DNA of 64,000 nucleotides from a virus. The notes beneath the pieces were generated by a model, which had not been told where the DNA came from, did no database searches, and saw nothing but the letters and a program-made list of their open reading frames with translations. The stretch is taken from positions 1 to 64,000 of the IMG/VR virus record IMGVR_UViG_3300020477_000014. One strand, written 5' to 3'. Within the stretch, counting starts at the first letter, position 1, and the number at the start of each line of letters is the position of its first letter. Both the position numbers and the translations under genes were made by a program. Below are positions 30,890-49,323 of the stretch, one piece after another.

Positions 30890-30908
30890 TTTTTATAAGG
30901 AAAAGAAA

Positions 30909-31904
30909 ATGAAACGTTTAGCAGAGTATATTTGGATTGATGGAGTATCGCCGACTCCATCTTTGAGAAGTAAAACCAAAACCTTGGGAGAATACCAGAA
31001 GTCTCCCATATGGGGGTTTGATGGCTCTAGTACTAATCAAGCCCCCGGACACAGTTCGGATTGTGTTCTTCGACCAGTATTCGAATGCGCAGACCCCATC
31101 CGCGGCTGGCCTAATATTATAGTGATGTGTGAGGTGCTGGATACAGATATGAACCCTCACCCTACGAACAACCGAGCTACATGCTCCGCTCTTTCTGCTA
31201 AGTTTAAAGAATTAGATCCATGGTTTGGGATTGAGCAAGAGTATACGTTGACAAAAAATGGCAAACCCCTTGGTTGGCCAAATAATGGTTTGGATCCGGC
31301 TCCCCAAGGTCCGTATTATTGTTCGGTCGGTGCGAAAAACACCTTTGGAAGAGAAATTGCCAACGAACACGCCAAGGCATGTGTGACTGCTGGATTGGAT
31401 ATTAGCGGAATTAATGCAGAAGTATGTCCCGGTCAATGGGAATTTCAAATTGGACCATGCGGCGGCACTGATGTTTCTGATCAACTTTGGATCGCGCGTT
31501 GGTTACTTGAAAGAATTGCCGAAGAGTATGGGGTCACAGTTAGTTATGAGCCGAAACCCGTCGCCGGCGATTGGAATGGAGCCGGCTGTCATACAAATTT
31601 TAGCACCAACACAATGCGAGAAAATTATGCCGCCGTCATTGCCGCATGTGAAGCGTTAGCCGCCAATCCACAAGAGCATATTAAAAACTATGGACACAAC
31701 ATTGAAGAGAGATTAACCGGTGATCACGAAACTTGTTCTTATACGGAATTTAGATATGGGGTTTCCGATCGGGGAGCCTCTATACGTATTCCGTGGCAAG
31801 TTGAGAAAGATCAGAAAGGCTATATAGAAGATCGCCGCCCTAATGCAAATTGTGATCCATATTTGGTGACGTCAATGCTAATGAATACAGTTTGTAACAA
31901 TTGA
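30909..31904 (+). CDS. glnII: Glutamine synthetase type II
   Basis: AEYIWIDG, LRSKTK, WGFDGSSTNQAPG, GIEQEY, INAEVCPGQWEFQIGP, WNGAGCHTNFST, DRGASIRIP, YIEDRRPNANCDPY. Confidence 0.93.
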   Translation: MKRLAEYIWIDGVSPTPSLRSKTKTLGEYQKSPIWGFDGSSTNQAPGHSSDCVLRPVFECADPIRGWPNIIVMCEVLDTDMNPHPTNNRATCSALSAKFKELDPWFGIEQEYTLTKNGKPLGWPNNGLDPAPQGPYYCSVGAKNTFGREIANEHAKACVTAGLDISGINAEVCPGQWEFQIGPCGGTDVSDQLWIARWLLERIAEEYGVTVSYEPKPVAGDWNGAGCHTNFSTNTMRENYAAVIAACEALAANPQEHIKNYGHNIEERLTGDHETCSYTEFRYGVSDRGASIRIPWQVEKDQKGYIEDRRPNANCDPYLVTSMLMNTVCNN

Positions 31905-34458: not shown

Positions 34459-35316
34459 ATGTCTCAAGTTATATTTTTGTCCGATATGTTTGTGGAACAA
34501 TACGCCGGCGGAGCAGAGCTTACTAGTGAATCTATCATTAAGGCTGCTCCCGAAGGCATTATTATTAAGAAAATTCTTACTTCTACTTTGACGCAGAGGA
34601 TGATCGATCATCATAAAGAGTATTTGTGGGTAATTTGCAATTTTGCTGGCTTATCGGATGAGTTTAAAATATATTTTTGTAAGAATAAGATATCTTATAC
34701 TATTATTGAATATGATTATAAATTTTGTAAATATCGCTCCATGGAGAAACATGAGTATGCAGAGGGAAAAGCATGCGATTGTAATGAACTCCCGTTTGGT
34801 AAAATTAATAAAATATTTTATGGATATGCAAAACAGATTTGGTTTATGAGTGCCAAACAACAAAATATTTTTCACGATAAAGTACAGACTATTAAAGAAG
34901 AAAATACCAGCGTGTTGTCTTCTATTTTTGCCGATGGCGATTTGAGGTTTATTGACAACATTCGTCATAATGAAAAGAATTCTAAATATATTATTTTGCA
35001 ATCTCCTTCTTGGATCAAGGGAACAGGAGAGTGTGTAGAATATGCTAAATCTCATAATTTGGATTTTGATTTGGTCCATAATCTACCGTATCCCGAGTTG
35101 TTGATAAAACTCTCTCAATCCCGCGGACTTATATTTAGACCTTTAGGGGGAGACACATGCCCTCGAATTGTGATTGAGGCAAAGTTGCTGGGTTGCGAAT
35201 TGGTTTTAAATGGAAACGTGCAACACAAAGACGAAAAATGGTTCAATGCCAGCTATGAAGAGATGGTTGCCTATCTTAAAGGTCGTGCTAGTGTTTTTTG
35301 GAAGCATTATGAATAA
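34459..35316 (+). CDS. Short GT-B-like glycosyltransferase
   Basis: GGAELT; WIKGT; DTCPRIVIEAKLLGC. Confidence 0.7.
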   Translation: MSQVIFLSDMFVEQYAGGAELTSESIIKAAPEGIIIKKILTSTLTQRMIDHHKEYLWVICNFAGLSDEFKIYFCKNKISYTIIEYDYKFCKYRSMEKHEYAEGKACDCNELPFGKINKIFYGYAKQIWFMSAKQQNIFHDKVQTIKEENTSVLSSIFADGDLRFIDNIRHNEKNSKYIILQSPSWIKGTGECVEYAKSHNLDFDLVHNLPYPELLIKLSQSRGLIFRPLGGDTCPRIVIEAKLLGCELVLNGNVQHKDEKWFNASYEEMVAYLKGRASVFWKHYE

Positions 35317-35998
35317 GAAAACTATAATTTTAATGGGGAACGGTCCATCCCTGAAGGACGTAGACTTTTCGTTGTTAGATGGTTACGATACTTTTGGTCT
35401 CAATTCGGCATATCGCGCATATGAAAGAATGGACTGGTGGCCTACTTATCACGGCTGTTTTGATTATAGAGTTACAGATAATCATAGGAGCAAATTCGAG
35501 GACTTGATAACCAACAGTCCTATTAAGAAATGTTTCTATATTCGTGATTTTGGAACAAATGATGGGTTTCAATATGTAAACTTGCAACAATATGGTACAA
35601 CGCAAAAGTTCAATAATTCGCTAGCTGATTTTGATTCATTTCATGATAATGGAAATTCAGGCGCCAATGCTAGTTCAGCGGCTGTTTGCATGGGTTACAA
35701 TAGGATCATACTTTTGGGCGTAGATTGCAATTATGTAGAATTCGTCGACGGCTCCCAACGAGATGGTCCGGGGCTGAAAATGGAGAAAACGCCCGAACAT
35801 AATCCTAATTATTGGTTTGATGATTACCAGCAAAAGGGCGATGAATACAATATTCCTCGAGGGATGGATTTTCATATGCCTACCTGGAATGCGTTTGCTT
35901 ACAATGCTGCTCATAATAATATAGAAGTCATTAATTGCAGCCCCATTACCACCTTAAGGTGCTTTAAGAGAATGAACATAGAGGAAGCGCTAAGGTGA
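35309..35998 (+). CDS. CstII/Maf (DUF115)-like CMP-sugar-acid transferase
   Basis: IILMGNGPSL, FGLNSAY, MGYNRIILLGVDCNY, NYWFDDY. Confidence 0.7.
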   Translation: MNKKTIILMGNGPSLKDVDFSLLDGYDTFGLNSAYRAYERMDWWPTYHGCFDYRVTDNHRSKFEDLITNSPIKKCFYIRDFGTNDGFQYVNLQQYGTTQKFNNSLADFDSFHDNGNSGANASSAAVCMGYNRIILLGVDCNYVEFVDGSQRDGPGLKMEKTPEHNPNYWFDDYQQKGDEYNIPRGMDFHMPTWNAFAYNAAHNNIEVINCSPITTLRCFKRMNIEEALR

Positions 35999-36405
35999 TA
36001 AGGATTTATTCAAAAATAGAACCAGATTTATTATTACATGTGATCAATAGATTCTCTGAGATTGACGGTCGAACTGAAGTTATTCCGGCAGATAATTTTT
36101 TACAATGCGCTACACTGAAGATGGAGAAGGGTAAAACTTTTGCCCCTCATTATCATATAAAAAAGGAAAGAACCTATACCGAACAAATTGCACAAGAATC
36201 GTGGATTGTAGTAAGGGGTGCTGTCAAATGTATATTGTATGACATAGATCACACTATTGTAGCCACTCCGATATTGTATGCTGGAGATGCAAGCTACACA
36301 TTGCATGGAGGGCACACTTATGAGATTCTGGAACACGATACAATAGTTTATGAATATAAGACGGGACCCTATGAAGGGCAAAAGTTCGATAAGGTGTTGA
36401 TATGA
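35995..36405 (+). CDS. WbuC-like cupin (sugar isomerase/epimerase)
   Basis: APHYH...QESWIVVRG...GGHTYE...EYKTGPY. Confidence 0.7.
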   Translation: MIRIYSKIEPDLLLHVINRFSEIDGRTEVIPADNFLQCATLKMEKGKTFAPHYHIKKERTYTEQIAQESWIVVRGAVKCILYDIDHTIVATPILYAGDASYTLHGGHTYEILEHDTIVYEYKTGPYEGQKFDKVLI

Positions 36406-36944
36406 TTAAAATAAATATGGGCTGTGGGTGGAGAAATTTTGGCAATGATTGGACCCATATCGATGCCGGCAACTATGATCATTTGAATTATAAAAGTATA
36501 ATAAACTTAAGTCAATTTCAAGACAATTCTGTTGGTTTAATTTACTCTTCTCATGTTATTGAATATTTTGATCGTACAGAAGTGATCCCTTTATTACAAG
36601 AGTGGAAAAGAATTTTGAACAAGGGTGGCACTCTAAGAATAGCAGTCCCTAATTTTGAAGCTATCGCTACTTTATATTCAAAAGGAAAAATTCCCCTTGA
36701 TAGAGTCTTGGGTCCACTTTACGGAAGAATGCAGATGTCTGATTGCACGATTTATCACAAAACAGTTTATGATTTCGTTTCTTTGAAAGAATTATTAGTG
36801 GAGCTTGGTTTTTCAAAAGTAAAAAAATATAATTGGCGGAAAACGGATCATGCCATATTTGACGATTATTCCCAAGCATATCTTCCCCACATGGATAAAG
36901 AAAATGGAACTTTAATAAGTTTAAATGTTGAGTGTGTTAAATGA
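36402..36944 (+). CDS. SAM-dependent methyltransferase (type 11-like)
   Basis: INMGCG, IYSSHVIEYF, WKRILNKGGTLRIAVP. Confidence 0.8.
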   Translation: MIKINMGCGWRNFGNDWTHIDAGNYDHLNYKSIINLSQFQDNSVGLIYSSHVIEYFDRTEVIPLLQEWKRILNKGGTLRIAVPNFEAIATLYSKGKIPLDRVLGPLYGRMQMSDCTIYHKTVYDFVSLKELLVELGFSKVKKYNWRKTDHAIFDDYSQAYLPHMDKENGTLISLNVECVK

Positions 36945-37534
36945 GTTTTGAGATAATTCAAAAATTTGAAAAAGAGATTGCTCGTTTTTATGGAGCCCCA
37001 TATGCTGTAGCTGTCGATTGTTGCACTCATGCAATCGAACTTTGCCTAAGACAGCAAAGCATAAAGCACTACACAGTTCCCAAAAGAACTTATATATCTG
37101 TTCCGTTTTTGGCTGATAAATTAGGCATAAACTTTGATTGGCGAAATGAGGAATGGCAAGATTATTATTACCTCGGAGGGACAAATATTATCGATGCTGC
37201 GGTTCTTTGGAGAGAGAATTCTTATATACCAAACACCTTTATGTGTGTTAGTTTTCAATATAGAAAACATTTATCTTTAGGAAGGGGAGGAATTATCTTG
37301 ACAGATAACAAAAAAGATGTTATATTATTAAAAAAGATGTCTTATGATGGTCGCTTGCCTGATGTTCCCTGGCGGGAACAGGACATTGACACAATGGGGT
37401 ATCACTATTACATGACACCGGAAACAGCAAATCTTGGTTTGCAAAAATTACCAAATGCCATAAAAACAAAACCAAAACAATGGATAGTGACAGATTGGCC
37501 AGATTTAACAAAAATGGAGATTTTTAAAAAATGA
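36941..37534 (+). CDS. Short DegT/DnrJ/EryC1/StrS PLP-dependent aminotransferase
   Basis: FEKEIARFYG...AVDCCTHAIEL, IIDAA, SFQYRKHLSLGRGG, GYHYYM; only 197 aa. Confidence 0.75.
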   Translation: MSFEIIQKFEKEIARFYGAPYAVAVDCCTHAIELCLRQQSIKHYTVPKRTYISVPFLADKLGINFDWRNEEWQDYYYLGGTNIIDAAVLWRENSYIPNTFMCVSFQYRKHLSLGRGGIILTDNKKDVILLKKMSYDGRLPDVPWREQDIDTMGYHYYMTPETANLGLQKLPNAIKTKPKQWIVTDWPDLTKMEIFKK

Positions 37535-38502
37535 AAAAAGCTTTAATTACCGGTATTGCCGGTCAAGACGGAAGCTATCTAACAGAACACTTGCTTTCCA
37601 TGGGATATGAAGTTCATGGTATAGTTCGACGGCATTCGGTGGCAGAGAATCAAAATTTTCGCTTACACCGATTAGGATCCGAACCTAATGTGTACACTTA
37701 TTATGGTGATTTGCTGGATTACCCTTCACTAGTTAGAATAATTTCGATAGTGAAGCCAGACGAGATTTATAATCTTGGTGCCATGAGTCACGTAAGGGTT
37801 AGTTTCGATATGCCTTCTTTTACAATTCAAACAAACGCCTTGGGTGTTTTAAACATGCTTGAAGTTTACAGAACTCTTTCCCCGGAAGCGAAATTCTATC
37901 AAGCTAGTTCTTCTGAGATGTTCGGAAACTCAGTTGATTCTGACGGTGTTCAGAGGCTTACTACTCCTATGAACCCAGTCAGCCCCTATGGGTGCGCTAA
38001 AGTTATGGGGTATAATTTAGTTAGACACTATCGACATGCTTACAAATTACATGCATGCAATGGAATTCTATTTAATCACGAATCCCCCCGACGAGGCTCT
38101 AACTTTGTGACCAATAAGGTTGTCAAAGGAGCCGTCTCTATCAAGAAGGGACTTCAAGACAAACTTGAGCTTGGCAATATGGACTCATCCCGGGATTGGG
38201 GTCATTCAAAAGATTATGTTAAGGCTATGCACATGATAATAAACCATGACACCCCCGAAGAATTTATTGTTGCAACCGGAGAAACACACTCAGTGAGAGA
38301 TTTGTGCGATGTGGTATTTTCTAAATTGGGAATGAACTATGCAGATTATATTGTTCAAAATCCGAAATATATGAGACCAGAAGAATTGAGATATCTAAAG
38401 GGAGACCCCTCGAAGGCTCATACAGTCTTGGGGTGGAAGCCAGAATATACTTTTGAAACAATGATAGAGGAAATGATCGAAAGATGGGAAAAAGAACTAT
38501 AA
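37531..38502 (+). CDS. gmd: GDP-mannose 4,6-dehydratase
   Basis: ALITGIAGQDGSYL, PDEIYNL, SHVRVSF, YQASSSEMFG, PYGCAK, LFNHESPRRG, RDWGH. Confidence 0.95.
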   Translation: MKKALITGIAGQDGSYLTEHLLSMGYEVHGIVRRHSVAENQNFRLHRLGSEPNVYTYYGDLLDYPSLVRIISIVKPDEIYNLGAMSHVRVSFDMPSFTIQTNALGVLNMLEVYRTLSPEAKFYQASSSEMFGNSVDSDGVQRLTTPMNPVSPYGCAKVMGYNLVRHYRHAYKLHACNGILFNHESPRRGSNFVTNKVVKGAVSIKKGLQDKLELGNMDSSRDWGHSKDYVKAMHMIINHDTPEEFIVATGETHSVRDLCDVVFSKLGMNYADYIVQNPKYMRPEELRYLKGDPSKAHTVLGWKPEYTFETMIEEMIERWEKEL

Positions 38503-38714
38503 AGAAATTCAACCGCGGCGACTTGGTGAAATGGTATGAGGTATACAATGATGTCTACATTACCAAAGATTATGGAACCGGAATCGTGATGGAGAGAATG
38601 GAACAAAATTACGGCTTCATCGATGGACCGGTTACTACCTACAGGGTATATAGATTAAAATATAGTGATATTGTTTTGTATGGGTCGGACTTAATAGAGG
38701 AAATAAATGAATAA
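38484..38714 (+). CDS. SH3/KOW-like protein inside the glycan cluster
   Basis: FNRGDLVKW...GTGIVMER...YRVY. Confidence 0.6.
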   Translation: MGKRTIKKFNRGDLVKWYEVYNDVYITKDYGTGIVMERMEQNYGFIDGPVTTYRVYRLKYSDIVLYGSDLIEEINE

Positions 38715-40371
38715 AAGATTATGCGTGTTGCAGGTCACTCCTACCGAACCTAATAGGGATCATATCGAATTATTTCACAATAAAAAAGATTGTGATTTTT
38801 ATTTTGTAACACATGATAGCCAACATGCTGATGCATTAAAATTTTGTCCCAACACTACGTGGACAGATACAAGAAATATATTAGCTGAAATGGTTCCTAA
38901 AAAATATGATTATTATGCTTTTGTGGATTATGATTATCGTTTTCATCCCCAAGGCGATCTTGGGGTACTTGAGCAGATATTGTCTGATTTAGAACATTTC
39001 AATCCAGCAGTTTTGACTTGTTATCCGGGTTCTGGGCTTATAACTCCCTTTGCTTCCGATATGGATTATAAAAACAAACATACCCACTCTGTAATACCTT
39101 TTACGCATTGTGGAATGAAGGTGGTCCACCATAGCCTTATGAATTGGTTTTTCCCAATGGTTACGAAATTTGGTGGTGGAGTGGAAGCATGTCATCTTTT
39201 TAACATAATGGAGCTTCCTTTTTTGCAAAATATTGTTTGCACTCATCAAATTGTATATGATAATGGAGTTACTGACATGAATGCGCCACACAATCGCGAT
39301 GGTGCACAATCTAAATTGAACATGGACAAGATGTGGTCATGGTTGTATCCTTATTTTAACAAAAGAAAAACCCTAAGAGATAAAGAAGTAAAACTCAGGT
39401 GGGGCGACAGTATCCCAACACGTATCGAGGAATACACTTCATATACTAATTCACTAACAATTAAAGAGACGTACGTCGGCTTATTGACTGGAAAAGTGAT
39501 TCCCAGTCCGGCAGAAAAAGAGGTAGATTATTACAGTTTAAAATATAAAGATAAAATTAAGAAGTTTTTCGATATAAATCATGAACATTTTGCTCCCAAA
39601 TTTGGAAATCTAAAATCTAGAAATGATACAATTGTTATTGTAGGAAATGGACCTTCTTTAAAAGAGGAATATTTCGAGATTTTACGACGCGATGATATTG
39701 ATACTTTCGGATTGAACGTTGCATATCGTTTTTTTGAGAAGATGAATTGGTATCCTAAGTTTTATGGATGTTTTGATTACGCTGCCACGAACACCCACAG
39801 ATCCAGTATTGCCTCTTTTATACGAGATAAGGATTGTCCTATAGAAAAGTTTTTCTTATTGGAAAGACCTAGTATCGAGGCAAGACTAAGCAACACTAAG
39901 TTGTATTTCGATGAGGACGTCCGCGGCGATCGTAAATATGTAGAAAGACCCCATAATCAAGACGGAATCGGATGGCCCACGTGGGGCACCAGGAATAATA
40001 AGATATCTTGCACGGGCGCAAATGCAATTCGCACCGCAATGGAATTAGGATACAAAAAGATTATTTTAATTGGTCATGATGCCAGCTACACTCCTTCGAA
40101 AAAAATCGAGGGACATTCTCAAGTATCGTCGGACAGATATGAGGTGACGGAAAAATCTCAAAATCCTAATTATTTTTGGCAAGATTATTACGAGAAGGGA
40201 GATATTTATAATAAGCCGGGGGATGCATTACCTGCATGGAAAAATATGGCTGATTGTGTAAGCCAAACTTATCCACATGTGGATGTAGTTAATTGCTCGA
40301 AGAACTCTAGAGTAACTTTTTTTCGGTTTGGTGAGTTTTTTAAAGAGATTGGGGTAAAAAATGAAGACTAA
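38707..40371 (+). CDS. Fusion: GT-A-like domain plus CstII/Maf-like transferase domain
   Basis: N-half YYAFVDYD (DxD); C-half IVIVGNGPSL, FGLNVAY, LGYKKIILIGHDASY, NYFWQDYY. Confidence 0.65.
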   Translation: MNKRLCVLQVTPTEPNRDHIELFHNKKDCDFYFVTHDSQHADALKFCPNTTWTDTRNILAEMVPKKYDYYAFVDYDYRFHPQGDLGVLEQILSDLEHFNPAVLTCYPGSGLITPFASDMDYKNKHTHSVIPFTHCGMKVVHHSLMNWFFPMVTKFGGGVEACHLFNIMELPFLQNIVCTHQIVYDNGVTDMNAPHNRDGAQSKLNMDKMWSWLYPYFNKRKTLRDKEVKLRWGDSIPTRIEEYTSYTNSLTIKETYVGLLTGKVIPSPAEKEVDYYSLKYKDKIKKFFDINHEHFAPKFGNLKSRNDTIVIVGNGPSLKEEYFEILRRDDIDTFGLNVAYRFFEKMNWYPKFYGCFDYAATNTHRSSIASFIRDKDCPIEKFFLLERPSIEARLSNTKLYFDEDVRGDRKYVERPHNQDGIGWPTWGTRNNKISCTGANAIRTAMELGYKKIILIGHDASYTPSKKIEGHSQVSSDRYEVTEKSQNPNYFWQDYYEKGDIYNKPGDALPAWKNMADCVSQTYPHVDVVNCSKNSRVTFFRFGEFFKEIGVKNED

Positions 40372-40795
40372 AAACGATAGTGATCTAAAGAGAGTGCTGG
40401 AAAAGGACGGCGTTCATTGTTTGGAATTAAAGAAATATGAAAATTGTTCTACTATAAATTTAGCTGAATTGAGAGAAGATTTGGGCATGGGGTCTTGGGC
40501 AGTGAGAATTGCTTACAACGATCTTTTTGGTGGAGTAGTCATTCAGCAACAGCCCGGCGAGGGAAATCGAAAACACTTCCATCATGATGCAGACGAGAAT
40601 TGGGTAATTTTAGATGGAGAGTGGGAATGGTGGATTGATGGCATTGGAAAACGCCGAGTGAAACAACATGATATAATAGTAGTGCCCCGAGGCGTTTGGC
40701 ACCAAATAACGTGCATAGGAGATTCGCCAGGAGTACGGTATGCAATTACACGACCGGATGTAGACCATGTATACGAAGACAACAACGATAAATAA
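40361..40795 (+). CDS. Cupin domain protein
   Basis: HFHHDADENWVILDG; VVPRGVWHQI. Confidence 0.85.
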   Translation: MKTKNDSDLKRVLEKDGVHCLELKKYENCSTINLAELREDLGMGSWAVRIAYNDLFGGVVIQQQPGEGNRKHFHHDADENWVILDGEWEWWIDGIGKRRVKQHDIIVVPRGVWHQITCIGDSPGVRYAITRPDVDHVYEDNNDK

Positions 40796-41501
40796 TATTA
40801 CTTTTAATTATTCTAACAAGATTGTGGTAGTAGTAGGGGGATCCCGTGGCATTGGCAAGGAAATCTGCAAGCAATTTGTTTTGGCTGGCGCTACGGTCTA
40901 TTGTTTATCACGAACGCCGCTTAATACAAAAGGAGTGACACACATTGTGTGTGATATATCTATCGAGAAAGATATTGACAAAGCTATCGCACAATTGGAG
41001 TCTATTGATTTTTTGATTAATGTAGCCGGCACCAACTTATGTGAGCCGATTGAAAATATAACAACCACAGAATGGGACCGGCTGATGAACACGAATTTGA
41101 AATCGTTTTTTTTGATTTCTAAAAAGGTGATTCCTTTGATGAAGGAGAAGAATTCCGGTCGCATTGTTAATGTCTCTTCTATTGCCGGCAGACATAAGAG
41201 CGTGGTTAGCGGCGTACATTATACATCTAGCAAATATGGTATTGTGGGATTAACTAAGCAGTTGGCACATGAGGTATCTCGATATAATATTTTGGTAAAC
41301 TGCGTGTGCCCAAGCCAAACAAGAACTGAAATGTTGGAAGCTTCCATGACTGAGGAACAGTTGCATAATTTAGAAAAACAAATTCCTGTACGTCGAATTG
41401 CTACCACTGTTGAGCAATCGTTACCTGTGTTGTTTCTTTGTTCTGATGGTGCTTCTTACATTAGTGGCGCTACAATCGATATTAACGGGGGTCAATTCTA
41501 A
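40767..41501 (+). CDS. Short-chain dehydrogenase/reductase
   Basis: VVGGSRGIG, LINVAG, IVNVSS, YTSSK, VNCVCP, INGG. Confidence 0.9.
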   Translation: MYTKTTTINNITFNYSNKIVVVVGGSRGIGKEICKQFVLAGATVYCLSRTPLNTKGVTHIVCDISIEKDIDKAIAQLESIDFLINVAGTNLCEPIENITTTEWDRLMNTNLKSFFLISKKVIPLMKEKNSGRIVNVSSIAGRHKSVVSGVHYTSSKYGIVGLTKQLAHEVSRYNILVNCVCPSQTRTEMLEASMTEEQLHNLEKQIPVRRIATTVEQSLPVLFLCSDGASYISGATIDINGGQF

Positions 41502-42179
41502 ATGCATAGGGATATAGATATAAACGTTTTGATTGCTGTTAGAGGCGGTTCTAAGCGCATTCCTGGAAAGAATACGAGACCTTTCGGGGGAGCCTCGATG
41601 CTTGAATTGAAAATTCAACAAGCTCTTCGATTAAAAGAAGTATCTGCGGTGGTGGTGACGTCAGAAGATGACTCCATGTTGCAGATAGCAGAAGATCTGG
41701 GAGCAGTTGCTATGAAGAGGGATTCTTATTATGCTAGCGATACGGTTCCAATGGGAGAAGTATATGTTCATCTTGCGTCATCTCTTAGTTGTAAGGATGT
41801 TTTGTGGACGCCGGTCACAAGTCCATTGGTGACCGATAAAACCATACAAGAGTGTATAACTTTTTATAAAACCAGGCCAGAGTTTGATTCTGTAGTAACC
41901 ACCAATCTGGTCAAGGAATATATGTGGTTGGGCGATAAAGCCATCAACTATGATCCACTGAATCATCCCAGATCCCAGGATTTGCCGGATGTTTATGCTT
42001 TGAATTTCGCAGCCAACATTCTTTCCCGCGAGATGATGATCAAAAACAGGAACATTATAGGAGATAAATTTTATCCTTATATGATAGACGATGTTGAATC
42101 TGTGGACGTGGATACTGAATTTGATTTTGTGATAGCAGAGTTTTTATATAATAACAGAGGAAAAGATTGTGACATATAA
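41502..42179 (+). CDS. Acylneuraminate/KDO-type cytidylyltransferase (NeuA/KdsB family)
   Basis: IAVRGGSKRIPGKN, VTSED, TSPL, RSQDLP, VDVDTEFDF. Confidence 0.85.
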   Translation: MHRDIDINVLIAVRGGSKRIPGKNTRPFGGASMLELKIQQALRLKEVSAVVVTSEDDSMLQIAEDLGAVAMKRDSYYASDTVPMGEVYVHLASSLSCKDVLWTPVTSPLVTDKTIQECITFYKTRPEFDSVVTTNLVKEYMWLGDKAINYDPLNHPRSQDLPDVYALNFAANILSREMMIKNRNIIGDKFYPYMIDDVESVDVDTEFDFVIAEFLYNNRGKDCDI

Positions 42180-42843
42180 GATAGAGGTACCCCCAATGTG
42201 CGAACCGGAAATCTTGCCAAAAGTAATACCATATTTTAAAAACCGATCTAAATTTGTGGATGTTGGGGCATCTGATGGCTGGTATACATATGTTGCCGCC
42301 AAGGAAATGCCATCAGGTTCGACAATAATTGGTTTCGAACCGGTACCATGGATTTTTGACAAATACAAGAATCATTATGTTGCATCTTGGGCGCCAGAGG
42401 ATTGGTTTAAAAACAAAACAATACACTGTTATAACCAAGTGGTTTCGGATCAATCCGGAATAGATACAAAGTTTTATAAAACAAAAAACCATTCAGGAGT
42501 TATGGATCCTCTTTTATTACTAAAAAAACCAGAAGCTTTTGAGGAAAGTTGGGATATTCCAACGACTAAGTTGGATGATTTTTTGGATCCTTCTGAAAAG
42601 GGAGTATTAATAAAAATTGACGTGGAAGGCGGTGAAGATAAGGTTATCAAGGGCGGTAACTATTATTTTTCCAATTGTGTAGAGTGTTATGTGTTTTTAG
42701 AATTGCACAATTCTTATCTCTTAAATAAAGGAGTGCCGCCACAAACCGTTGTGAAATATTTCACAGATCGAGGTTATGAAAAAATTAAATTAGGTGGCCA
42801 CGGGCGAATCGAATGGTATATTTTTAGGAAAGAAATCAAATGA
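42169..42843 (+). CDS. FkbM family methyltransferase
   Basis: FVDVGASDG, GFEP, TTKLDDF, IKIDVEGGE. Confidence 0.85.
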   Translation: MTYKIEVPPMCEPEILPKVIPYFKNRSKFVDVGASDGWYTYVAAKEMPSGSTIIGFEPVPWIFDKYKNHYVASWAPEDWFKNKTIHCYNQVVSDQSGIDTKFYKTKNHSGVMDPLLLLKKPEAFEESWDIPTTKLDDFLDPSEKGVLIKIDVEGGEDKVIKGGNYYFSNCVECYVFLELHNSYLLNKGVPPQTVVKYFTDRGYEKIKLGGHGRIEWYIFRKEIK

Positions 42844-43778
42844 GAAATATCAAGATCTTTATTGTTACATATAAGAGGGGAGATGTCCTAAATAATACTT
42901 TGCAAAAGTTATTCAAAGAAACCGATTTCTCCTTAATACCGAATACCGAAGTTAATATTATTAATAATCATTCAGATTTTTGGATTGATGATGAATTTCG
43001 GGACCAAGTGAATGTTATACACAATTCTACGCGCCCCGATTGGGATGTTGGTAATCTCGCACGTAATTGGAACGAAGCACTTTTGCACGGCTTTAAAGAT
43101 TTAAAAAACCCAGACTCTAAGGTGGTGGTAACGATGCAGAACGACATTGTTTTGCACCCCAATTGGGCCACCAATTTGCTTAAAATGCATAAAAAATATA
43201 ATTTCATAACTGGTTGCGCAGGTGATAATATTATTAGTTATACGGCGGAGGCAGTGAAGAAGATCGGATTATGGGACGAAAGGTTTTGTTCCATATCTCA
43301 CAAAGAAGCCGATTATTATATTAGAGCGCTTATTTATAACAAAGAATATTCCATTATAAATGATCAGTTTCATAAGCGTTATCTAAATGCAGACGCATGG
43401 CTTCCTTTGGATACTGGTGATTACTTAGGCAATGAAAAAGAATGGATGAAGATAAAAGCCACCAACTTGTCTACAGAAGCAATGAACCATAGCACTCAGA
43501 TATTTTACTGGAAATGGAAAAACACATGGAAGACTCAACCTTCTTATAATGGATGGTTCGTTAATTGGTCGTCGGATTTTATAACCGATCCGCCATCTCC
43601 CCCGACCGTTCCGAATTTCATAAAATATTATTATTTTGAAAAAGATCTTGACAATTTGCAAAAAAAGAATTATATTGGTTGGAGAAGTGGCGATCTTTGG
43701 TTGAGATCTACGGGGAACCTGGACATTGATGAACTTCCACCTCCCAGAGAATCAACTACAGGAGAAATTTCGAAATGA
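42840..43778 (+). CDS. GT-A (GT2-like) glycosyltransferase
   Basis: IFIVTYKR, LARNWN, MQNDIV, IGLWDERF, EADY. Confidence 0.7.
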   Translation: MRNIKIFIVTYKRGDVLNNTLQKLFKETDFSLIPNTEVNIINNHSDFWIDDEFRDQVNVIHNSTRPDWDVGNLARNWNEALLHGFKDLKNPDSKVVVTMQNDIVLHPNWATNLLKMHKKYNFITGCAGDNIISYTAEAVKKIGLWDERFCSISHKEADYYIRALIYNKEYSIINDQFHKRYLNADAWLPLDTGDYLGNEKEWMKIKATNLSTEAMNHSTQIFYWKWKNTWKTQPSYNGWFVNWSSDFITDPPSPPTVPNFIKYYYFEKDLDNLQKKNYIGWRSGDLWLRSTGNLDIDELPPPRESTTGEISK

Positions 43779-44470
43779 TAACTACTAAAAATTTACAAAT
43801 AATAGACACTGCGCAAACTCTTTATGATGCTTTTAACGATTTTATTTTGAGCGACGATACCAAAGTGTTCGGAAAATTACTCGCAAGAGCCATTTTGCTC
43901 GATCGAGTAAAAGATGTTCCTGGTGATATAATAGAGTGTGGTGTTTTTAAAGGGACCGGTGTTGTTTCTTTTCTAAAAATAAAAAAATATTTATGCCCCA
44001 ATTCTCATAAAAAAGTTATTGGTTTTGATTTTTTTGATACTGACGGATTGTTAAAAAGCCTATCAAACCAAGACCAAGAGGCTATGAGTGCATTATTCAA
44101 AGATAGAGGATTCGAACATGAGCAGGGATTTGTTTCTTATTTAAAGCAGTCAATTGAATCCTTTGGGTTTCAAGAGCACGAATTTGAACTTGTACAAGGA
44201 GATATTTCAAAAACTATAAAAGAATATATATCCGATAAGCCTGGATTGAAAATTTCTCTTTTATATATTGATTTAGATATTGAAAAGCCAACTTATGATG
44301 TTTTGTGCGCCACTTGGGATAGAATGTCGAAGGGGGGCATGATAGTGTTTGATGAATATGCATATCATTGCTGGTCGGAGTCGATTGGTGTGGATAGGTT
44401 TTTCAAAGATAAGAATGTAGTAGTGAGGTCTCTAAATTTCATGGGACCCACAGCATATGTAATAAAATAA
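43775..44470 (+). CDS. TylF/MycF/NovP-like O-methyltransferase
   Basis: VPGDIIECGVFKG, GFDFF, LLYIDLDI, GGMIVFDEY. Confidence 0.85.
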   Translation: MITTKNLQIIDTAQTLYDAFNDFILSDDTKVFGKLLARAILLDRVKDVPGDIIECGVFKGTGVVSFLKIKKYLCPNSHKKVIGFDFFDTDGLLKSLSNQDQEAMSALFKDRGFEHEQGFVSYLKQSIESFGFQEHEFELVQGDISKTIKEYISDKPGLKISLLYIDLDIEKPTYDVLCATWDRMSKGGMIVFDEYAYHCWSESIGVDRFFKDKNVVVRSLNFMGPTAYVIK

Positions 44471-44483
44471 AAAGAGAACAAAC

Positions 44484-45215
44484 ATGAATATATTGATACC
44501 AATGGCTGGCGAAGGCAGTCGATTTAAAAAAGAAGGCTTTAAAAAACCAAAACCACTAATAGACGTTAACGGAAAACCTATGATTAAGTGGGTTGTGGAT
44601 AATGTCGGAATTGACGGAAAATATATTTTTATCGTACAAAAGGCACATACAATAAAGTACCCATATTTAGTTGATGAGCTTACAACTATGGCAAAGGACG
44701 TAGAGGTGTTGACGGTAGATGGATTAACAGAAGGCGCCGCATGTACAGCATTGATAGCCAAACACTTGATAGACAATGACGAGCCATTACTAATTTGCAA
44801 TTCAGATCAGTGGGTGGATTGGGTCCCAGAACATTTTTTAAAATTTATAAAGAGAAAAGATTGTGATGGGGCATTATTAACTTTTTTCTCTGATAGTCCA
44901 AAGCATTCTTATTCTCGATACAATTATAATACCAGAGTGGTAACAGAAGTTGCCGAAAAACAAGTTATAAGCAATTTTGCCACTGTGGGAATATATTATT
45001 GGAGAAAGGGTAGCGAATTCGTGGAATGTGTTAATAAAATGATAGACAAGAATCTAAGAGTTAATAATGAATTTTATTTATGCCCAGCCTATAATGAGTT
45101 GATTTTCCACAAAGACGGGAAGGTGGAATTGTATCCTATTTGTGAGATGAGGGGAATGGGTACTCCTATGGAATTAGAAAGGTTTTTACTCTTATTAGAG
45201 AAAGAAGGCGTTTAA
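44484..45215 (+). CDS. Sugar-1-phosphate nucleotidyltransferase-like protein
   Basis: LIPMAGEGSRF..EG..KPKPLIDV; TEGAACT, CNSDQ, EVAEK, NNEFY, GTPMEL. Confidence 0.85.
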   Translation: MNILIPMAGEGSRFKKEGFKKPKPLIDVNGKPMIKWVVDNVGIDGKYIFIVQKAHTIKYPYLVDELTTMAKDVEVLTVDGLTEGAACTALIAKHLIDNDEPLLICNSDQWVDWVPEHFLKFIKRKDCDGALLTFFSDSPKHSYSRYNYNTRVVTEVAEKQVISNFATVGIYYWRKGSEFVECVNKMIDKNLRVNNEFYLCPAYNELIFHKDGKVELYPICEMRGMGTPMELERFLLLLEKEGV

Positions 45216-46399
45216 TGAAGTTTTTTCGTCAAAGTGTAGAAAAAGAGAAATACATCATAGTGGAGTATTTTTTAAAAAGCAAGACCACATTGAGAGATGC
45301 TGCATGGTCTTTGGCAATAGGTCAAAGTGTAGGAAACCCCAATGTCAGAAATCATTGGGAAACCGATGAGCTTTTTGAGAACCATTCTTGTTTGATTATG
45401 GGTGATGAAGAGAAGTTAAAACAAATAAGCGAAGGTAAAGTTAAAATAGCCTTTCCAATAGCAAATACAGACTTTAAGACAGATGGAGTGTCTCATTTGC
45501 TTTGTCAATTTATGGGCGGACAAATGGATATAGATATTGTTCAAAAATGCCACATGTTGAATGTAGTACTACCTCAGCATGTTGAAGATAAATATTTTTT
45601 AGGACCAAAATACGGCATTGAAGGTATCAGAGATTTTACTAATAGTCACGATAAGCCTCTTTTTGGAGGGATTGTTAAGCCCAAGATTGGCGTTACAAGT
45701 AGCGTGTTGCTTGAAATGGTACGAGAGATGGTAGAGGGGGGCATCAATTTCATCAAAGAAGATGAGATCATGTCAAACCCTGCTTGTTGCCCAATAGAAG
45801 AAAGAGTACCTTTAATTATGGATTATCTCAAAGGCAAGGATGTGATTTATGCTGTTTGTATTAATTGTGATCCGCTGCATGTTATTGATAGAGTTAAAAG
45901 AGTTCATGAATTAGGAGCCAACGCTGTCCATATCAATTTTTGGAGCGGACTTGGAGTTTATAAATCAATTAGAGAATTGGATTTGCCAATGTTTATTCAC
46001 TTTCAAAAAAGTGGCGACAAAGTATTAACAAACAAGAATCATGATTATCATATTTCTTGGGACGTTGTGTGTGATCTGGCAGGTCTTATGGGTGTGGATT
46101 TTATACACGCTGGAATGTGGGGTGGCTACATGTCAGATAATGAACAGGAATTAAAGAACACTTTATCTGTTTTGCACAACAGGAGTGTAATGCCGGCTCT
46201 AAGTTGCGGAATGCATGCAGGTCTAATTCAAGCAATAAACAAAAGATTTGGAACAAATTATATGGCTAATGTCGGCGGCGCTATACATGGACACCCTAAC
46301 GGCTCTAAAAGTGGCACCATGGCGATAAGACAGAGTGTAGATGGCGAACATGGACAAGAATATGAAATTGCGATAAAAAAATGGGGGATCGTAAAGTGA
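45215..46399 (+). CDS. RuBisCO-like protein (form IV)
   Basis: GGIVKPKIG, NFIKEDE, DFIHAG, PALSCGMH, NVGGAIHGHP; lacks the HRA motif and the loop-6 Lys. Confidence 0.85.
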   Translation: MKFFRQSVEKEKYIIVEYFLKSKTTLRDAAWSLAIGQSVGNPNVRNHWETDELFENHSCLIMGDEEKLKQISEGKVKIAFPIANTDFKTDGVSHLLCQFMGGQMDIDIVQKCHMLNVVLPQHVEDKYFLGPKYGIEGIRDFTNSHDKPLFGGIVKPKIGVTSSVLLEMVREMVEGGINFIKEDEIMSNPACCPIEERVPLIMDYLKGKDVIYAVCINCDPLHVIDRVKRVHELGANAVHINFWSGLGVYKSIRELDLPMFIHFQKSGDKVLTNKNHDYHISWDVVCDLAGLMGVDFIHAGMWGGYMSDNEQELKNTLSVLHNRSVMPALSCGMHAGLIQAINKRFGTNYMANVGGAIHGHPNGSKSGTMAIRQSVDGEHGQEYEIAIKKWGIVK

Positions 46400-46423
46400 C
46401 TGACATTTTTTGGAGAACCATTA

Positions 46424-46867
46424 GTGAAAATGATTGCACATAGAGGAAATCTCAGAGGGCCGAACCCGGACCAAGAGAATAAACCAGAGTATATAGAGGC
46501 GGCATTGGCGGAACACTACGATGTGGAAGTGGACGTATGGCGATCTGAAAACAAGTGGTATCTAGGTCACGACGAACCACAATATGAGATAGATTCAGAA
46601 TTTCTCGTAAATGAGAGAATATGGTGTCATGCAAAGAATTTACATGCATTTCAAGATTTGTTGGTATTAGATGCGCATTGTTTTTGGCACCAAAAGGATG
46701 ATTATACCTTGACAAGTAGTAATTTTATTTGGGCGTATCCTGGCCAACCATTGTCGCCGATGTCCATTTGTGTAATGCCTGAATTAACAGCTTATACCAC
46801 AACAGATGTCTTAAGGTGTGCCGGGATCTGTTCCGATTGGATAGAGAAATTTGGGGAAATTTTATGA
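46424..46867 (+). CDS. Short GDPD/PLC-like phosphodiesterase-domain protein
   Basis: MIAHRG, ENKP, DVEVDVW, LGHD, HAKN, GICSD. Confidence 0.7.
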   Translation: MKMIAHRGNLRGPNPDQENKPEYIEAALAEHYDVEVDVWRSENKWYLGHDEPQYEIDSEFLVNERIWCHAKNLHAFQDLLVLDAHCFWHQKDDYTLTSSNFIWAYPGQPLSPMSICVMPELTAYTTTDVLRCAGICSDWIEKFGEIL

Positions 46868-47544
46868 TATTGGCTTGGCAGCAAATTCCTTCTCCAATGG
46901 TTTCAGAGATCTTGTGTTGTAATTCTGCTGGCATAGTGTTGGATTTGGAACATGGGTGTTTTAATAATGAGACTCTTTACACTTGTATTCAAATTATTAA
47001 ATCTAAAAATAAAAAATGCATAGTTAGGCTGACAGAAGTTTCCAAAACAATAATTCGCTATTGTTTGGATGCCGGCGCTGATGGATTAATTTTTTCTACA
47101 ATTGAAACAACAGAACAATGTGAAAAAATAATGGAATATAGCTACTATGCTCCCAAGGGCAAGCGAGGCTTGGGGTTGGTCCGCCAAAATCTATGGGGTG
47201 AGAAAAACCTTTTGTCACCAGATCCTATTATTATACCCCAAATCGAAACAAAGGATGCTGTGGATAATTTGGAAAACATCTTAAAATTTAATTTCGATTA
47301 TTATTTAATAGGCCCTTATGATCTGTCTTTAAGTTTAAAAATCCCGGGAAAATTTGACAATCCTCAATTTATATGTTATATTAATAAAGTGAATGAATTG
47401 ATAGAAAGGTCCAGGCTGGCAGTTCATATTCCCAATGACGTTCCTAATCAAATTAGCAAATATAGGGATTATGGAATAAAATGCCTGGGCATGGACACGA
47501 TAGGGCTATTAGAATATATGAAGGAGAACAACAAGCATGCTTAA
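46864..47544 (+). CDS. HpcH/HpaI class II aldolase family
   Basis: LDLEHG, LDAGADG, YAPKGKRGLG, PQIETKDAV, IGPYDLSLSL. Confidence 0.85.
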   Translation: MILAWQQIPSPMVSEILCCNSAGIVLDLEHGCFNNETLYTCIQIIKSKNKKCIVRLTEVSKTIIRYCLDAGADGLIFSTIETTEQCEKIMEYSYYAPKGKRGLGLVRQNLWGEKNLLSPDPIIIPQIETKDAVDNLENILKFNFDYYLIGPYDLSLSLKIPGKFDNPQFICYINKVNELIERSRLAVHIPNDVPNQISKYRDYGIKCLGMDTIGLLEYMKENNKHA

Positions 47545-48514
47545 TTTCGAAAATTTAGGAGAAAGATTTGTTCAAGTAGTTAACGGATCGGATTGGCTAG
47601 AATTACAAGAAAAATTTAACAAATGTGATGACATATACGTGTTGGGTCATGGAGGAAATTTAGCCGTGGCTGATCATGCTGCTGTAGATATTACTCGCTT
47701 ATCTAACGGACAAAAGAATGCTATTTGCCCCAGTAGTGGTGTTGTAGCCACCTCTTTTATCAATGACACCAATTTTGAGCAGTGGATGGTAAATTGGTTA
47801 TCTTGTCGTACCAATACGAGAACTGAAGCACAAATGAAGAAATCGTTAGTACTGGGAATATCGTCTTCTGGCGCCTCTATCGATGTTTTAAAAGCACTAC
47901 AGTGGGCGAATGACAACGGGATGGAAATAGGGATGATTAGCTCCAAGGATCTTACTTATGATATTTCTAATTTGACTAAAGTTATATTGGGCGCCGAATA
48001 TTACCACACCGCAGAGGTTCTAACACTTCTTTTAACCTACCAACTAACTCATGGATCAGGGAAAGAGTGCCCCCCTATAGGACAAAATACTCCTGATGCA
48101 TTGCGCGCACTAAACTGGAAAGGGGGTCACATCCGGGAACACAGCTATCCGGATGAAAAAATTAATTTAGGAATCGATTTTGATAAAGTGATTCATGGTT
48201 GTTCGCGAGGATATTATGATGGCACTATTTATGATCCCCCTATTCATGGAGCCGCCGAGGCACTTGAAAAATTATCTCAAAGTTATACTTTAATTATTTA
48301 TACCTGTAAAGCCAAGCCAGATCGTGGACTTGTGAATGGAAAAACAGGAACAGCTTTAGTTTGGGAATGGCTAGAAAAAAATAATCTTTCTCAATTTGTA
48401 AGTAAAGTTACAGCAGAAAAGCCACGAGCAGTGTGCTATATTGACGACAAGGCTGTACGATTTATCGATTGGGAATCTTGCATGAAAGAGTTGGAGGAAA
48501 TAGGCATTCTATGA
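47537..48514 (+). CDS. Fusion: SIS (GmhA-like) isomerase plus HAD phosphatase
   Basis: LGHGGNLAVADH, GISSSG; then GIDFDKVI, IIYTC, KP, YIDD. Confidence 0.75.
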   Translation: MLNFENLGERFVQVVNGSDWLELQEKFNKCDDIYVLGHGGNLAVADHAAVDITRLSNGQKNAICPSSGVVATSFINDTNFEQWMVNWLSCRTNTRTEAQMKKSLVLGISSSGASIDVLKALQWANDNGMEIGMISSKDLTYDISNLTKVILGAEYYHTAEVLTLLLTYQLTHGSGKECPPIGQNTPDALRALNWKGGHIREHSYPDEKINLGIDFDKVIHGCSRGYYDGTIYDPPIHGAAEALEKLSQSYTLIIYTCKAKPDRGLVNGKTGTALVWEWLEKNNLSQFVSKVTAEKPRAVCYIDDKAVRFIDWESCMKELEEIGIL

Positions 48515-49323
48515 TCTTGATAACAGGACATAAAGGCTATATCGGAAGTCATCTCTATAAGGCTTTAAAATCATTTGACATGGAAGTGTATGGGATTGAT
48601 TTAAAAGACGGTCACGATATCGCTTATTGTTTGCCTGATCGAGATTTCGATTATGTATTCCATCTAGCAGCACTACCACAAGTCGAATATTGCAACAAGC
48701 ACCCTAGTTATGCACTTAAGCAAAATGTGGGTGCAACTTCGATACTTCTCGAGTGGGCTTATGGACACAATGTCAAGAAGGTCATTTTTTCATCTTCAGC
48801 AGCAGTGTATGGCGATGGAGGTGGTCCTAAATCTCCTTATGGTTTACATAAGTTGATGGCAGAAATGGAGTGTAAACTATATTCAGATTTTTATAATATA
48901 GATACGGTTTGTTTGCGATATTTTAATGTATATTCAGAAGATCAACCGTACGGCGGCTCTTATTCTACGGTTATTGCAGCTTGGATGGAGATGATGAGGA
49001 ATGGTCATCCTTTGCGTTTGGATGGCACAGGCAAACAAACGAGAGACTTTGTTCATGTAGAAGATATAGTGGCTGCTAATATATTTTGCATGAAGAGTAA
49101 ATTAAAATTTAATGGAGAGTGTTATGATGTGGGCTCTGGTCAGTCGACTGCGCTTAACACTATAAAATATTATATCGATCATCGATATTCTAATGTGAGT
49201 TGGTTATGGACCCCTGAAAGAGAGGGAGACATCTTTAATTCGGTTGCTGACATATCTAAGTTGGCAGAAATAGGATGGACACCACAAATTGACATAAAGA
49301 CTGGCTTATCTAGATGTTTTTAG
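48511..49323 (+). CDS. NAD-dependent epimerase/dehydratase
   Basis: ITGHKGYIG, VFHLAA, SSSAAVYG, YGLHK, LRYFNVY, RDFVHV. Confidence 0.9.
   Translation: MILITGHKGYIGSHLYKALKSFDMEVYGIDLKDGHDIAYCLPDRDFDYVFHLAALPQVEYCNKHPSYALKQNVGATSILLEWAYGHNVKKVIFSSSAAVYGDGGGPKSPYGLHKLMAEMECKLYSDFYNIDTVCLRYFNVYSEDQPYGGSYSTVIAAWMEMMRNGHPLRLDGTGKQTRDFVHVEDIVAANIFCMKSKLKFNGECYDVGSGQSTALNTIKYYIDHRYSNVSWLWTPEREGDIFNSVADISKLAEIGWTPQIDIKTGLSRCF

Follow-up and report, generated by a model that had tools for sequence, protein, structure and literature searches.

In the pathway to 3-deoxy-D-manno-octulosonic acid (Kdo), the sugar acid is made and attached by the SIS isomerase KdsD, the phosphoenolpyruvate (PEP)-dependent Kdo-8-phosphate synthase KdsA, the HAD phosphatase KdsC, the cytidylyltransferase KdsB of the CTP_transf_3 family and a Kdo transferase. 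The 9-phosphate pathways to 2-keto-3-deoxy-nononic acid (Kdn) and the sialic acids employ a NeuB-family Kdn-9-phosphate or N-acetylneuraminic acid (Neu5Ac)-9-phosphate synthase, a HAD phosphatase such as the Kdn-9-phosphate phosphatase of Bacteroides thetaiotaomicron, a CMP-synthetase and a sialyltransferase. To our knowledge, the synthase in every described route to Kdo, sialic, legionaminic or pseudaminic acid belongs to the KdsA or NeuB family and is PEP-dependent. The virus record IMGVR_UViG_3300020477_000014 of IMG/VR contains, in its first 64 kb (the whole stretch of DNA analysed here, called the window), a glycan gene region with an HpcH-family aldolase, a SIS-HAD fusion protein, a NeuA-like cytidylyltransferase and two sialyltransferase-like proteins. 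The region is interpreted here, with slightly better than even confidence and from sequence comparisons, as encoding a pathway that leads without NeuB or KdsA to a CMP-activated 2-keto-3-deoxy sugar acid, that is, a Kdo-, Kdn- or sialic-acid-like ulosonate.

Compared with the Kdo pathway, four of the five enzyme classes recur in the phage (SIS isomerase, capless HAD phosphatase, CTP_transf_3 cytidylyltransferase and predicted CMP-dependent transferase), and the logic is the same, whereas condensation would fall to an HpcH class II pyruvate aldolase instead of a PEP enzyme of the DAHP-synthase family. The other components differ in detail from their Kdo counterparts: the SIS domain is GmhA-like and has no CBS domain, the cytidylyltransferase is nearer to NeuA and PseF than to KdsB, and the transferases are GT42-like and not GT30. 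The Kdn and sialic acid 9-phosphate pathways resemble the phage set in the NeuA-like enzyme, the sialyltransferase-fold transferases and a HAD phosphatase placed after the condensation, with Kdn-9-phosphate phosphatases among the weak fold matches; however, the phage has no NeuB-family synthase, and its donor would be pyruvate. With the Maf and CstII proteins of Campylobacter and Helicobacter (GT42; pseudaminic, legionaminic and sialic acids), the phage transferases share the N-terminal GNGPSL, the GY..I.L.G.D motif and, at scores close to the Pfam cut-off, a DUF115/MptE-like match, but the phage has no Pse or Leg synthase genes, and its proteins are short, soluble-looking and only distant relatives.

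The source is a marine, T4-like phage. Its record comprises 189,712 bp, is rated 100% complete by CheckV and contains the T4-type major capsid gene gp23; psbA was sought in the record and not found. Besides the glycan region, the window holds PhoH, baseplate-wedge and tail genes. The glycan genes, named here by the position of their first base (Table 1), all lie on the plus strand and are densely packed, many with overlaps of 4 to 8 bases. The whole region has no nucleotide match in cultured phages.

The aldolase and the canonical synthases

A preceding sequence-only reading of the window had found no PEP-dependent NeuB or KdsA and had proposed a search of the full genome. This search agrees with the reading: no match to NeuB (PF03102), DAHP/KdsA (PF00793) or DHDPS/NanA (PF00701) occurs in the 189,712-bp genome, and the positive controls were detected. 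The complete aldolase-bearing phage genomes G001, G002, G017, G031 and G034 likewise contain neither NeuB nor KdsA, and the complete aldolase-bearing genome G063, in which KdsA was not searched, contains no NeuB. Searches of 49 viral records over their full length detected NeuB or KdsA in 1 of 35 HpcH-positive records versus 7 of 14 HpcH-negative ones, the latter being holders of more distant cytidylyltransferases (Fisher p ~3e-4, for records that are not phylogenetically independent). In the sole exception, locus L155, NeuB adjoins its own NeuA-like gene and lies apart from the pair formed by HpcH and a cytidylyltransferase of type B, a subtype described below.

The aldolase 46864 belongs to the metal-dependent class II enzymes of the HpcH/HpaI family (Pfam HpcH cut-off, 25 bits) and is the proposed synthase of the 2-keto-3-deoxy sugar acid. 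Among solved structures, the 2-keto-3-deoxy sugar aldolase YfaU (2vws, E 3e-18) gives the best match. The EH, VR, QIE and GPYDLS positions align with YfaU and are invariant in 11 viral homologues; the aligned His and Arg and the metal-binding Glu and Asp positions are those that we take to be catalytic in YfaU and HpaI. Fold, family and these aligned positions are common to the phage enzyme and the catabolic 2-keto-3-deoxy sugar-acid aldolases YfaU, GarL and HpaI, from which it differs by scores far below every equivalog cut-off, by its biosynthetic context and by its own EHGCFNNE signature, common to the 11 viral homologues.

The characterised relatives recovered in the family and PDB comparisons are all catabolic aldolases, as would be expected if the phage gene were an auxiliary catabolic gene cleaving host 2-keto-3-deoxy sugar acids to pyruvate and an aldehyde during infection. 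Such a role is considered very improbable in view of the 25 to 30% identity to the catabolic enzymes, the separate invariant signature and the position of the gene, which lies among glycan-biosynthesis genes, is translationally coupled with them (its ATG overlaps the stop of the upstream gene) and is linked with cytidylyltransferases and transferases across phages. In cultured phages, the aldolase has just a 29% match, found in two Staphylococcus phage records, and 796 homologues are present in metagenomes. Bacterial genomes searched with the single aldolase sequence gave no match; the alignment-based search of bacterial genomes recovered relatives at 31 to 36%, often adjoining a 2-hydroxyacid dehydrogenase gene, and in one Verrucomicrobiota locus GT29-like, cytidylyltransferase, dehydrogenase and HpcH genes stand together.

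Activation, transfer and the isomerase-phosphatase fusion

The protein 41502, read earlier as a NeuA/KdsB-type synthetase, is indeed a CTP_transf_3 protein (Pfam 52.9 bits, cut-off 22.6) and the sole member of this family in the whole genome. Among solved structures, it is best matched by CMP-Neu5Ac synthetases (6ifd, E 1.7e-19), aligned over the full length, and its GGSKR..KN, RSQDLP and VDVD motifs align with those of 6ifd. The scores lie far under the NCBIfam equivalog cut-offs (PseF, 84.3 versus 205.7 bits; KdsB models, 17 to 33 versus 155 to 281 bits), and therefore the substrate is not nameable. The cytidylyltransferase closes a trio with the cupin 40361, a putative tailoring enzyme (epimerase or isomerase), and the short-chain dehydrogenase (SDR) 40767, a putative tailoring oxidoreductase for which NCBIfam gives subfamily matches only, none above cut-off. 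The trio is kept in loci L084/85, L110/111, L214-L223 and L227-L232.

The aldolase gene is followed by the SIS-HAD gene, with which it shares its last 8 bases. This gene, the SDR, the aldolase, the cupins (35995 and 40361) and the FkbM and TylF genes were all named in the sequence-only reading, and each is present. The model of the fusion protein has a predicted local distance difference test (pLDDT) score of 81, and the best folds for the SIS domain are the phosphoheptose isomerases 1tk9, 5i01 and 3trj (TM-score by target, 0.72 to 0.73); the NCBIfam GmhA score of 28.5 bits lies far below the cut-off of 209. The SIS domain is separated by a disordered linker from the HAD domain, which by itself is modelled as a small, capless, Rossmann-like fold (pLDDT 85) and has a gene of its own in L143 and L152. 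The fold matches of the HAD domain are weak (E ~5e-3) and comprise T4 Pnkp, AfhF of phage HY126, GmhB and the Kdn-9-phosphate and Kdo-8-phosphate phosphatases; a profile of the domain gave no significant match in PDB sequences. Its four HAD motifs (DxD, Thr/Ser, Lys and DD) are intact, with D214, D216, K295, D303 and D304 invariant and T256 nearly so in 18 homologues.

The resemblance of the SIS domain to phosphoheptose isomerases, the weak HAD matches to GmhB and to the arabinose-1,5-bisphosphate phosphatase AfhF, and the presence of nucleotidyltransferase 44484 within the same gene run would also fit a GmhA/GmhB-type NDP-heptose pathway or a phage-type NDP-pentose pathway, with the aldolase as an unrelated neighbour. 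This alternative is judged quite improbable. The whole genome encodes no GHMP or PfkB sugar kinase to make a 1,x-bisphosphate, and SIS-HAD genes stand directly beside HpcH or cytidylyltransferase genes in cassettes without a nucleotidyltransferase. Despite the nucleotidyltransferase there, SIS-HAD occurs in just 1 of 80 viral loci around relatives of the neighbouring RuBisCO-like protein 45215 (80 loci kept of 186 relatives). A self-contained heptose pathway was rejected, as the genome contains no anomeric sugar kinase (HldE domain I/PfkB or HddA/GHMP).

The ATG of the epimerase 48511 overlaps the SIS-HAD stop; aldolase, SIS-HAD and epimerase genes thus overlap successively by 4 to 8 bases. 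The epimerase is predicted to serve in nucleotide-sugar tailoring, its assignment to one of the modules being uncertain.

The open reading frame beginning with the ATG at 35309, a start codon choice that matches the homologues, encodes a protein with the N-terminus MNKKTIILMGNGPSLKDVDF that also bears CMGYNRIILLGVDCNY. The C-terminal half of the 38707 protein contains IVIVGNGPSLKEEY and MELGYKKIILIGHDASY, and the GNGPSL and GY..I.L.G.D motifs named in the sequence-only reading can be read in both proteins, the latter extending to GY..I.L.G.D.NY in 35309. The Pfam MptE-like/DUF115 model (cut-off 34.6 bits) scores just below threshold on 35309 (31.6 bits) and just above it on residues 291-462 of the 38707 protein (35.5 bits), and a weak Pfam CST-I match covers the GNGPSL stretch (18.9 bits, cut-off 25). 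Comparison of a profile of 15 members of the transferase family, the 38707 protein included (A4), with the PDB gave GT42 sialyltransferases only (CstII 1ro7, E 3.5e-8; CstI 2p2v; 9c08). The C-terminal half of this profile has no invariant His, and the PDB alignments end at about profile position 146, before the catalytic-His region; in CstII, His188 is presumably the catalytic base. The 35309 protein is regarded as a putative CMP-ulosonate-dependent transferase. The N-terminal half of the 38707 protein, a separate gene in L083 and L089, is possibly GT-A-like (DUF707/DUF5672-like), for which Atlas feature matches serve as a lead only.

Linkage across loci and the neighbouring modules

IMG/VR was searched with each component as seed, the aldolase being used as a single sequence and then as an alignment (A2). 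At 90% identity, the 46 loci of the aldolase-seeded set fall into 27 lineages, 24 of which have at least 5 kb on both sides. A CTP_transf_3 gene lies within 10 kb of HpcH in 19 of these 24 lineages; a GT42- or GT29-like gene is present as well in 16 of the 24, and a SIS-HAD gene in 12. The viral cytidylyltransferases fall into three subtypes, of which type A, that of the window, always follows cupin and SDR genes, and type B usually stands immediately 5' of the aldolase. In the 51 genuine loci from the type B-seeded search, HpcH is found within 10 kb in 48, mostly directly downstream, and a Maf-like or GT29-like gene in every one. In L091 and L162, a gene of the GT29 sialyltransferase family (Pfam) directly precedes the cytidylyltransferase-HpcH pair. 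A minimal cassette of GT29, cytidylyltransferase, HpcH and SIS/HAD with no nucleotidyltransferase nearby is present in L162, L121-123, L125, L128 and L136, which ties SIS-HAD to the proposed ulosonate pathway rather than to an NDP-sugar route. All type A relatives at 69 to 77% identity whose locus reaches far enough have HpcH and keep the order of the window (cupin, SDR, cytidylyltransferase, GT2, HAD_2/nucleotidyltransferase, TylF, GDPD-like, HpcH), in most cases followed by SIS/HAD and epimerase genes. The co-occurrence analysis proposed in the sequence-only reading links HpcH with cytidylyltransferase and sialyltransferase-like genes across phage loci.

Cellular genomes contain a comparable arrangement. 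The closest cellular relatives of 41502 (45 to 52% identity) are found in Gastranaerophilales, Fusobacterium and rumen metagenome-assembled genomes (MAGs), and in 6 of the 8 closest loci an HMGL-like metal-dependent aldolase-fold protein is encoded directly beside the cytidylyltransferase. These HMGL-like loci include HAD_2 in four cases, an MptE-like gene in four and a KdsD-type SIS+CBS isomerase in one, and just 2 of 22 cellular loci with relatives of 41502 contain NeuB. Judged by gene content, the HMGL-like loci offer a second, independent example of the synthase position being occupied by an aldolase-fold enzyme. The cassettes of gut and rumen bacteria (MptE-like...CTP_transf_3-HMGL-like-HAD_2; L313-L318 and L321) and the phage cassette both combine a metal-dependent aldolase-fold enzyme with HAD and Maf-like proteins and have no NeuB; in contrast to the phage, the bacterial aldolase is HMGL-like/DRE-TIM and not HpcH, the HAD is a capped HAD_2, and one isomerase is of KdsD type. 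No paper on HMGL-like aldolase cassettes was found in the literature. Of 80 cellular loci with a type-B-like cytidylyltransferase (L233-L312), mostly from Anaerolineales and Phycisphaerae, 33 contain NeuB and 4 contain HpcH, none of them both. A Maf-like gene was seen in 55 of these 80 loci.

Several observations weigh against the proposed pathway. Unless the product is drawn off, an aldolase reaction lies on the side of cleavage; the SIS domain is more similar to GmhA than to KdsD, and the HAD fold matches are weak. No cytidylyltransferase is near HpcH in 5 of the 24 lineages, and the aldolase family therefore extends beyond this role. A type A relative (34 to 46% identity) with SIS/HAD or cupin-SDR genes adjoining and no HpcH or NeuB on the contig is found in seven fragmentary phage records, so another type of synthase or a synthase-free route may exist. 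In the 80 type-B-like cellular loci, a D-2-hydroxyacid dehydrogenase accompanies the cytidylyltransferase in 72, and 43 have neither NeuB nor HpcH inside 8 kb; other keto-acid routes may therefore exist. In the window itself, 4.7 kb separate the aldolase from the cytidylyltransferase, and the aldolase directly adjoins the GDPD-like/nucleotidyltransferase module.

This last arrangement would suit a phage that takes an ulosonic acid of host origin (Kdo or nonulosonic) and does no more than activate and transfer it, with HpcH and SIS-HAD serving another product, for example that of the nucleotidyltransferase/GDPD-like module. The GDPD-like gene is indeed present in 19 and the nucleotidyltransferase in 17 of the 27 first-found HpcH loci, and the five HpcH lineages without cytidylyltransferase have their counterpart in cytidylyltransferase relatives without HpcH or NeuB. 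On the other side stand the cassettes in which HpcH, cytidylyltransferase and sialyltransferase-like genes occur with no nucleotidyltransferase or GDPD-like gene, the nearly complete mutual exclusion of NeuB/KdsA and HpcH beside these cytidylyltransferases, and the 80 RuBisCO-like loci, where the nucleotidyltransferase (78 loci) and GDPD-like gene (69 loci) form a pair and HpcH is found in none. Use of a host-made acid is accordingly considered unlikely.

Among L224-L232, type A relatives without HpcH, the uncharacterised neighbouring proteins have no homologue in the window. Conserved proteins without a Pfam family adjoin SIS/HAD or cytidylyltransferase genes at L229:11633-12526, L224:7891-9027 and L162:12311-13366 and are candidates for another synthase or a tailoring enzyme. 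Plant-type cell-wall families are encoded beside the GT29-like gene at L091:7979-8560, L093:5475-6107 and L093:13696-14373 (IRX15/GXM glucuronoxylan methyltransferase-like and TOD1/MUCI70 GT-like).

The genes between the cytidylyltransferase and the aldolase form an NDP-sugar-type module of separate distribution. Within it, the nucleotidyltransferase, RuBisCO-like and GDPD-like genes (44484-46867) make up a trio that is widespread among viruses; these three, Gmd and the short DegT/LegC-like protein had not been named for this interval in the sequence-only reading. For the RuBisCO-like protein, viral contigs hold 186 relatives at 55 to 82% identity, two of them on giant-virus MAG contigs, whereas cultured phages gave no protein match. 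Within the 80 loci, the cytidylyltransferase is found, like SIS-HAD, in only one, and the RuBisCO-like protein is absent from the 27 first-found aldolase loci; it stands together with HpcH in this window only. A part for it in the ulosonate route was rejected, as it never occurs with HpcH in the 80 and 27 loci. Frequent neighbours of the RuBisCO-like protein are methyltransferases of FkbM or TylF type and a cupin-like protein of 107 aa. In aldolase loci, one co-varying block comprises the GT2, HAD_2, nucleotidyltransferase, TylF and GDPD-like genes, and most relatives have a beta-phosphoglucomutase-like HAD_2 domain fused to, or just before, the nucleotidyltransferase; the window has no such mutase-like domain, and the RuBisCO-like protein takes its place. 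For the GDPD-like protein, no significant sequence match was found in the PDB and only viral hypothetical clusters in Atlas, GDPD being a weak lead there.

The sequence-only reading had proposed a non-canonical route to a sialic-acid-like sugar, possibly a new monosaccharide methylated further by the FkbM and TylF enzymes. Linkage, near-exclusive distribution, intact residues and the absence of the synthases argue for the part in which HpcH and SIS-HAD feed the CMP-transferase in place of NeuB or KdsA. A new monosaccharide is a possible product. The methylation part found no support: the methyltransferases travel with the separate module, also without aldolase or CMP-transferase, and since they co-vary with the RuBisCO-like/GT2 block, ulosonate methylation has no co-occurrence support.

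A GDP-6-deoxyhexose-type block lies between the two transferase genes, and its gene order is kept in L084-L088, L111 and L214-L223. Its 36941 protein matches DegT/LegC aminotransferases in two short stretches only (profile positions 26-77 and ~187-265); the length of 197 aa is kept in related phages at 66 to 76% identity, so the gene is not a recent pseudogene. About 10 to 20 kb upstream of the main glycan genes, a eukaryote-type phosphomannomutase gene (Pfam PMM, 125 bits) overlaps a CTP_transf_like (TagD/RfaE-II-type) gene at 24764-26048; the phosphomannomutase probably supplies mannose-1-phosphate for the Gmd branch.

Two further genes were noted upstream of the glycan region. A type II glutamine synthetase gene at 30783-31904, just upstream of the glycan genes, scores 563 bits against the GlnII equivalog (cut-off 500); viral type II glutamine synthetases form a large group of sequences in ocean metagenomes (GOS paper, PMC1821046). 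The 256-aa protein at 29287-30057 matches the Pfam family of anthrax lethal factor N/C domains weakly, below threshold (23.4 versus 27.4 bits), and may contain a metalloprotease-like domain.

Table 1. Features of the glycan gene region, in window coordinates
Feature	Coordinates	Strand	Basis or block
Transferase 1, GT42/CstII- and Maf-like (DUF115/MptE-like)	35309..35998	+	motifs, Pfam, profile A4
WbuC-like cupin	35995-36405	+	GDP-6-deoxyhexose-type block
Methyltransf_11	36402-36944	+	GDP-6-deoxyhexose-type block
Short DegT/LegC-like protein, 197 aa	36941-37534	+	GDP-6-deoxyhexose-type block
GDP-mannose 4,6-dehydratase (Gmd)	37531-38502	+	GDP-6-deoxyhexose-type block
Two-domain 554-aa protein	38707..40371	+	C-half (~39577-40371) = GT42/Maf-like transferase 2
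Cupin_2 protein, first gene of cupin-SDR-cytidylyltransferase trio	40361..40795	+	Pfam Cupin_2 44.5 bits
FabG-like short-chain dehydrogenase, second trio gene	40767..41501	+	Pfam adh_short 161 bits
NeuA-like CMP-ulosonate cytidylyltransferase (type A), putative	41502..42179	+	CTP_transf_3, 6ifd alignment
NDP-sugar-type module between cytidylyltransferase and aldolase	42169..46867	+	Pfam, NCBIfam, co-occurrence
FkbM methyltransferase	42169-42843	+	Pfam/NCBIfam
GT2-like	42840-43778	+	Pfam/NCBIfam
TylF-like methyltransferase	43775-44470	+	Pfam/NCBIfam
Sugar-phosphate nucleotidyltransferase	44484-45215	+	Pfam/NCBIfam
RuBisCO-like protein, 394 aa	45215-46399	+	Pfam/NCBIfam
GDPD-like protein, 147 aa	46424-46867	+	Pfam/NCBIfam
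HpcH/HpaI-family class II (metal-dependent) pyruvate aldolase	46864..47544	+	Pfam 55.3 bits, YfaU alignment
GmhA-like SIS isomerase (residues 1-172) and capless HAD phosphatase (205-325) fusion	47537..48514	+	models, HAD motifs
NAD-dependent epimerase/dehydratase (GalE-like)	48511..49323	+	Pfam Epimerase 155 bits; NCBIfam GalE 113 bits, below cut-off

Proposed route and its meaning

From the domains, motifs, linkage and missing synthases, we infer the substrates, the order of steps, the product and the acceptor of the following route. The SIS half of 47537 would isomerise a host ketose phosphate to an aldose phosphate, which the HpcH aldolase would join with pyruvate rather than PEP. The HAD half of 47537 would then strip the phosphate from the resulting phosphorylated 2-keto-3-deoxy acid. 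After possible tailoring of the acid by the cupin 40361 and the SDR 40767, the NeuA-like enzyme 41502 would form the CMP-sugar, and the 35309 protein and the C-terminal half of the 38707 protein would transfer the sugar to an acceptor, perhaps a virion or infected-cell protein. HAD dephosphorylation and CTP-driven activation would pull the reversible aldol step and thus make it effectively irreversible, and the fusion of isomerase and phosphatase, together with the gene overlap with the aldolase, fits an isomerase-aldolase-phosphatase logic.

The product would depend on the aldose phosphate. Arabinose-5-phosphate would lead to a Kdo-type C8 acid, hexose-6-phosphate to a Kdn-type C9 acid and heptose-7-phosphate to a C10 acid; the GmhA-like fold of the SIS model suggests heptose-7-phosphate as a substrate. 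Candidate products are 3-deoxy-heptulosaric acid (Dha), Kdn, Kdo and a 10-carbon acid, and for phages with an additional 2-hydroxyacid dehydrogenase gene, hydroxypyruvate is a candidate donor. Full-text literature on HpcH together with a cytidylyltransferase or a sialyltransferase yielded no paper on such a route, and none was found by title or abstract on heptulosaric-acid biosynthesis with an aldolase or on nonulosonic-acid genes in bacteriophages. Neither aldolases nor phages are mentioned in Petit et al. 2018 (PMC5811610). On these comparisons, the locus would represent a new enzymatic variant of a known pathway type, recurring in uncultured marine phages.

In its most extended and more tentative form, to which we give somewhat less than even chances, the proposal states that marine T4-like phages make an undescribed ulosonic acid from a sugar phosphate by means of a class II aldolase that uses pyruvate, that this aldolase is bracketed by a fused isomerase-phosphatase, and that the acid is attached by miniature sialyltransferase-like enzymes to targets on the virion or the host cell, with a parallel HMGL-like version in bacteria. 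If true, this would be a third, independent enzymatic solution for sugars of the sialic acid and Kdo type, possibly leading to a new 8- to 10-carbon sugar, and would give biocatalysis a new way to ulosonic acids. With three or four small soluble proteins, one could then test directly whether phages glycosylate virions or the surface of infected cells with sialic-acid-like sugars. KdsA and NeuB are the markers on which genome surveys for these sugars depend; if a pyruvate aldolase can replace the synthase, decoration with acidic sugars is under-counted in ocean viruses and bacteria.

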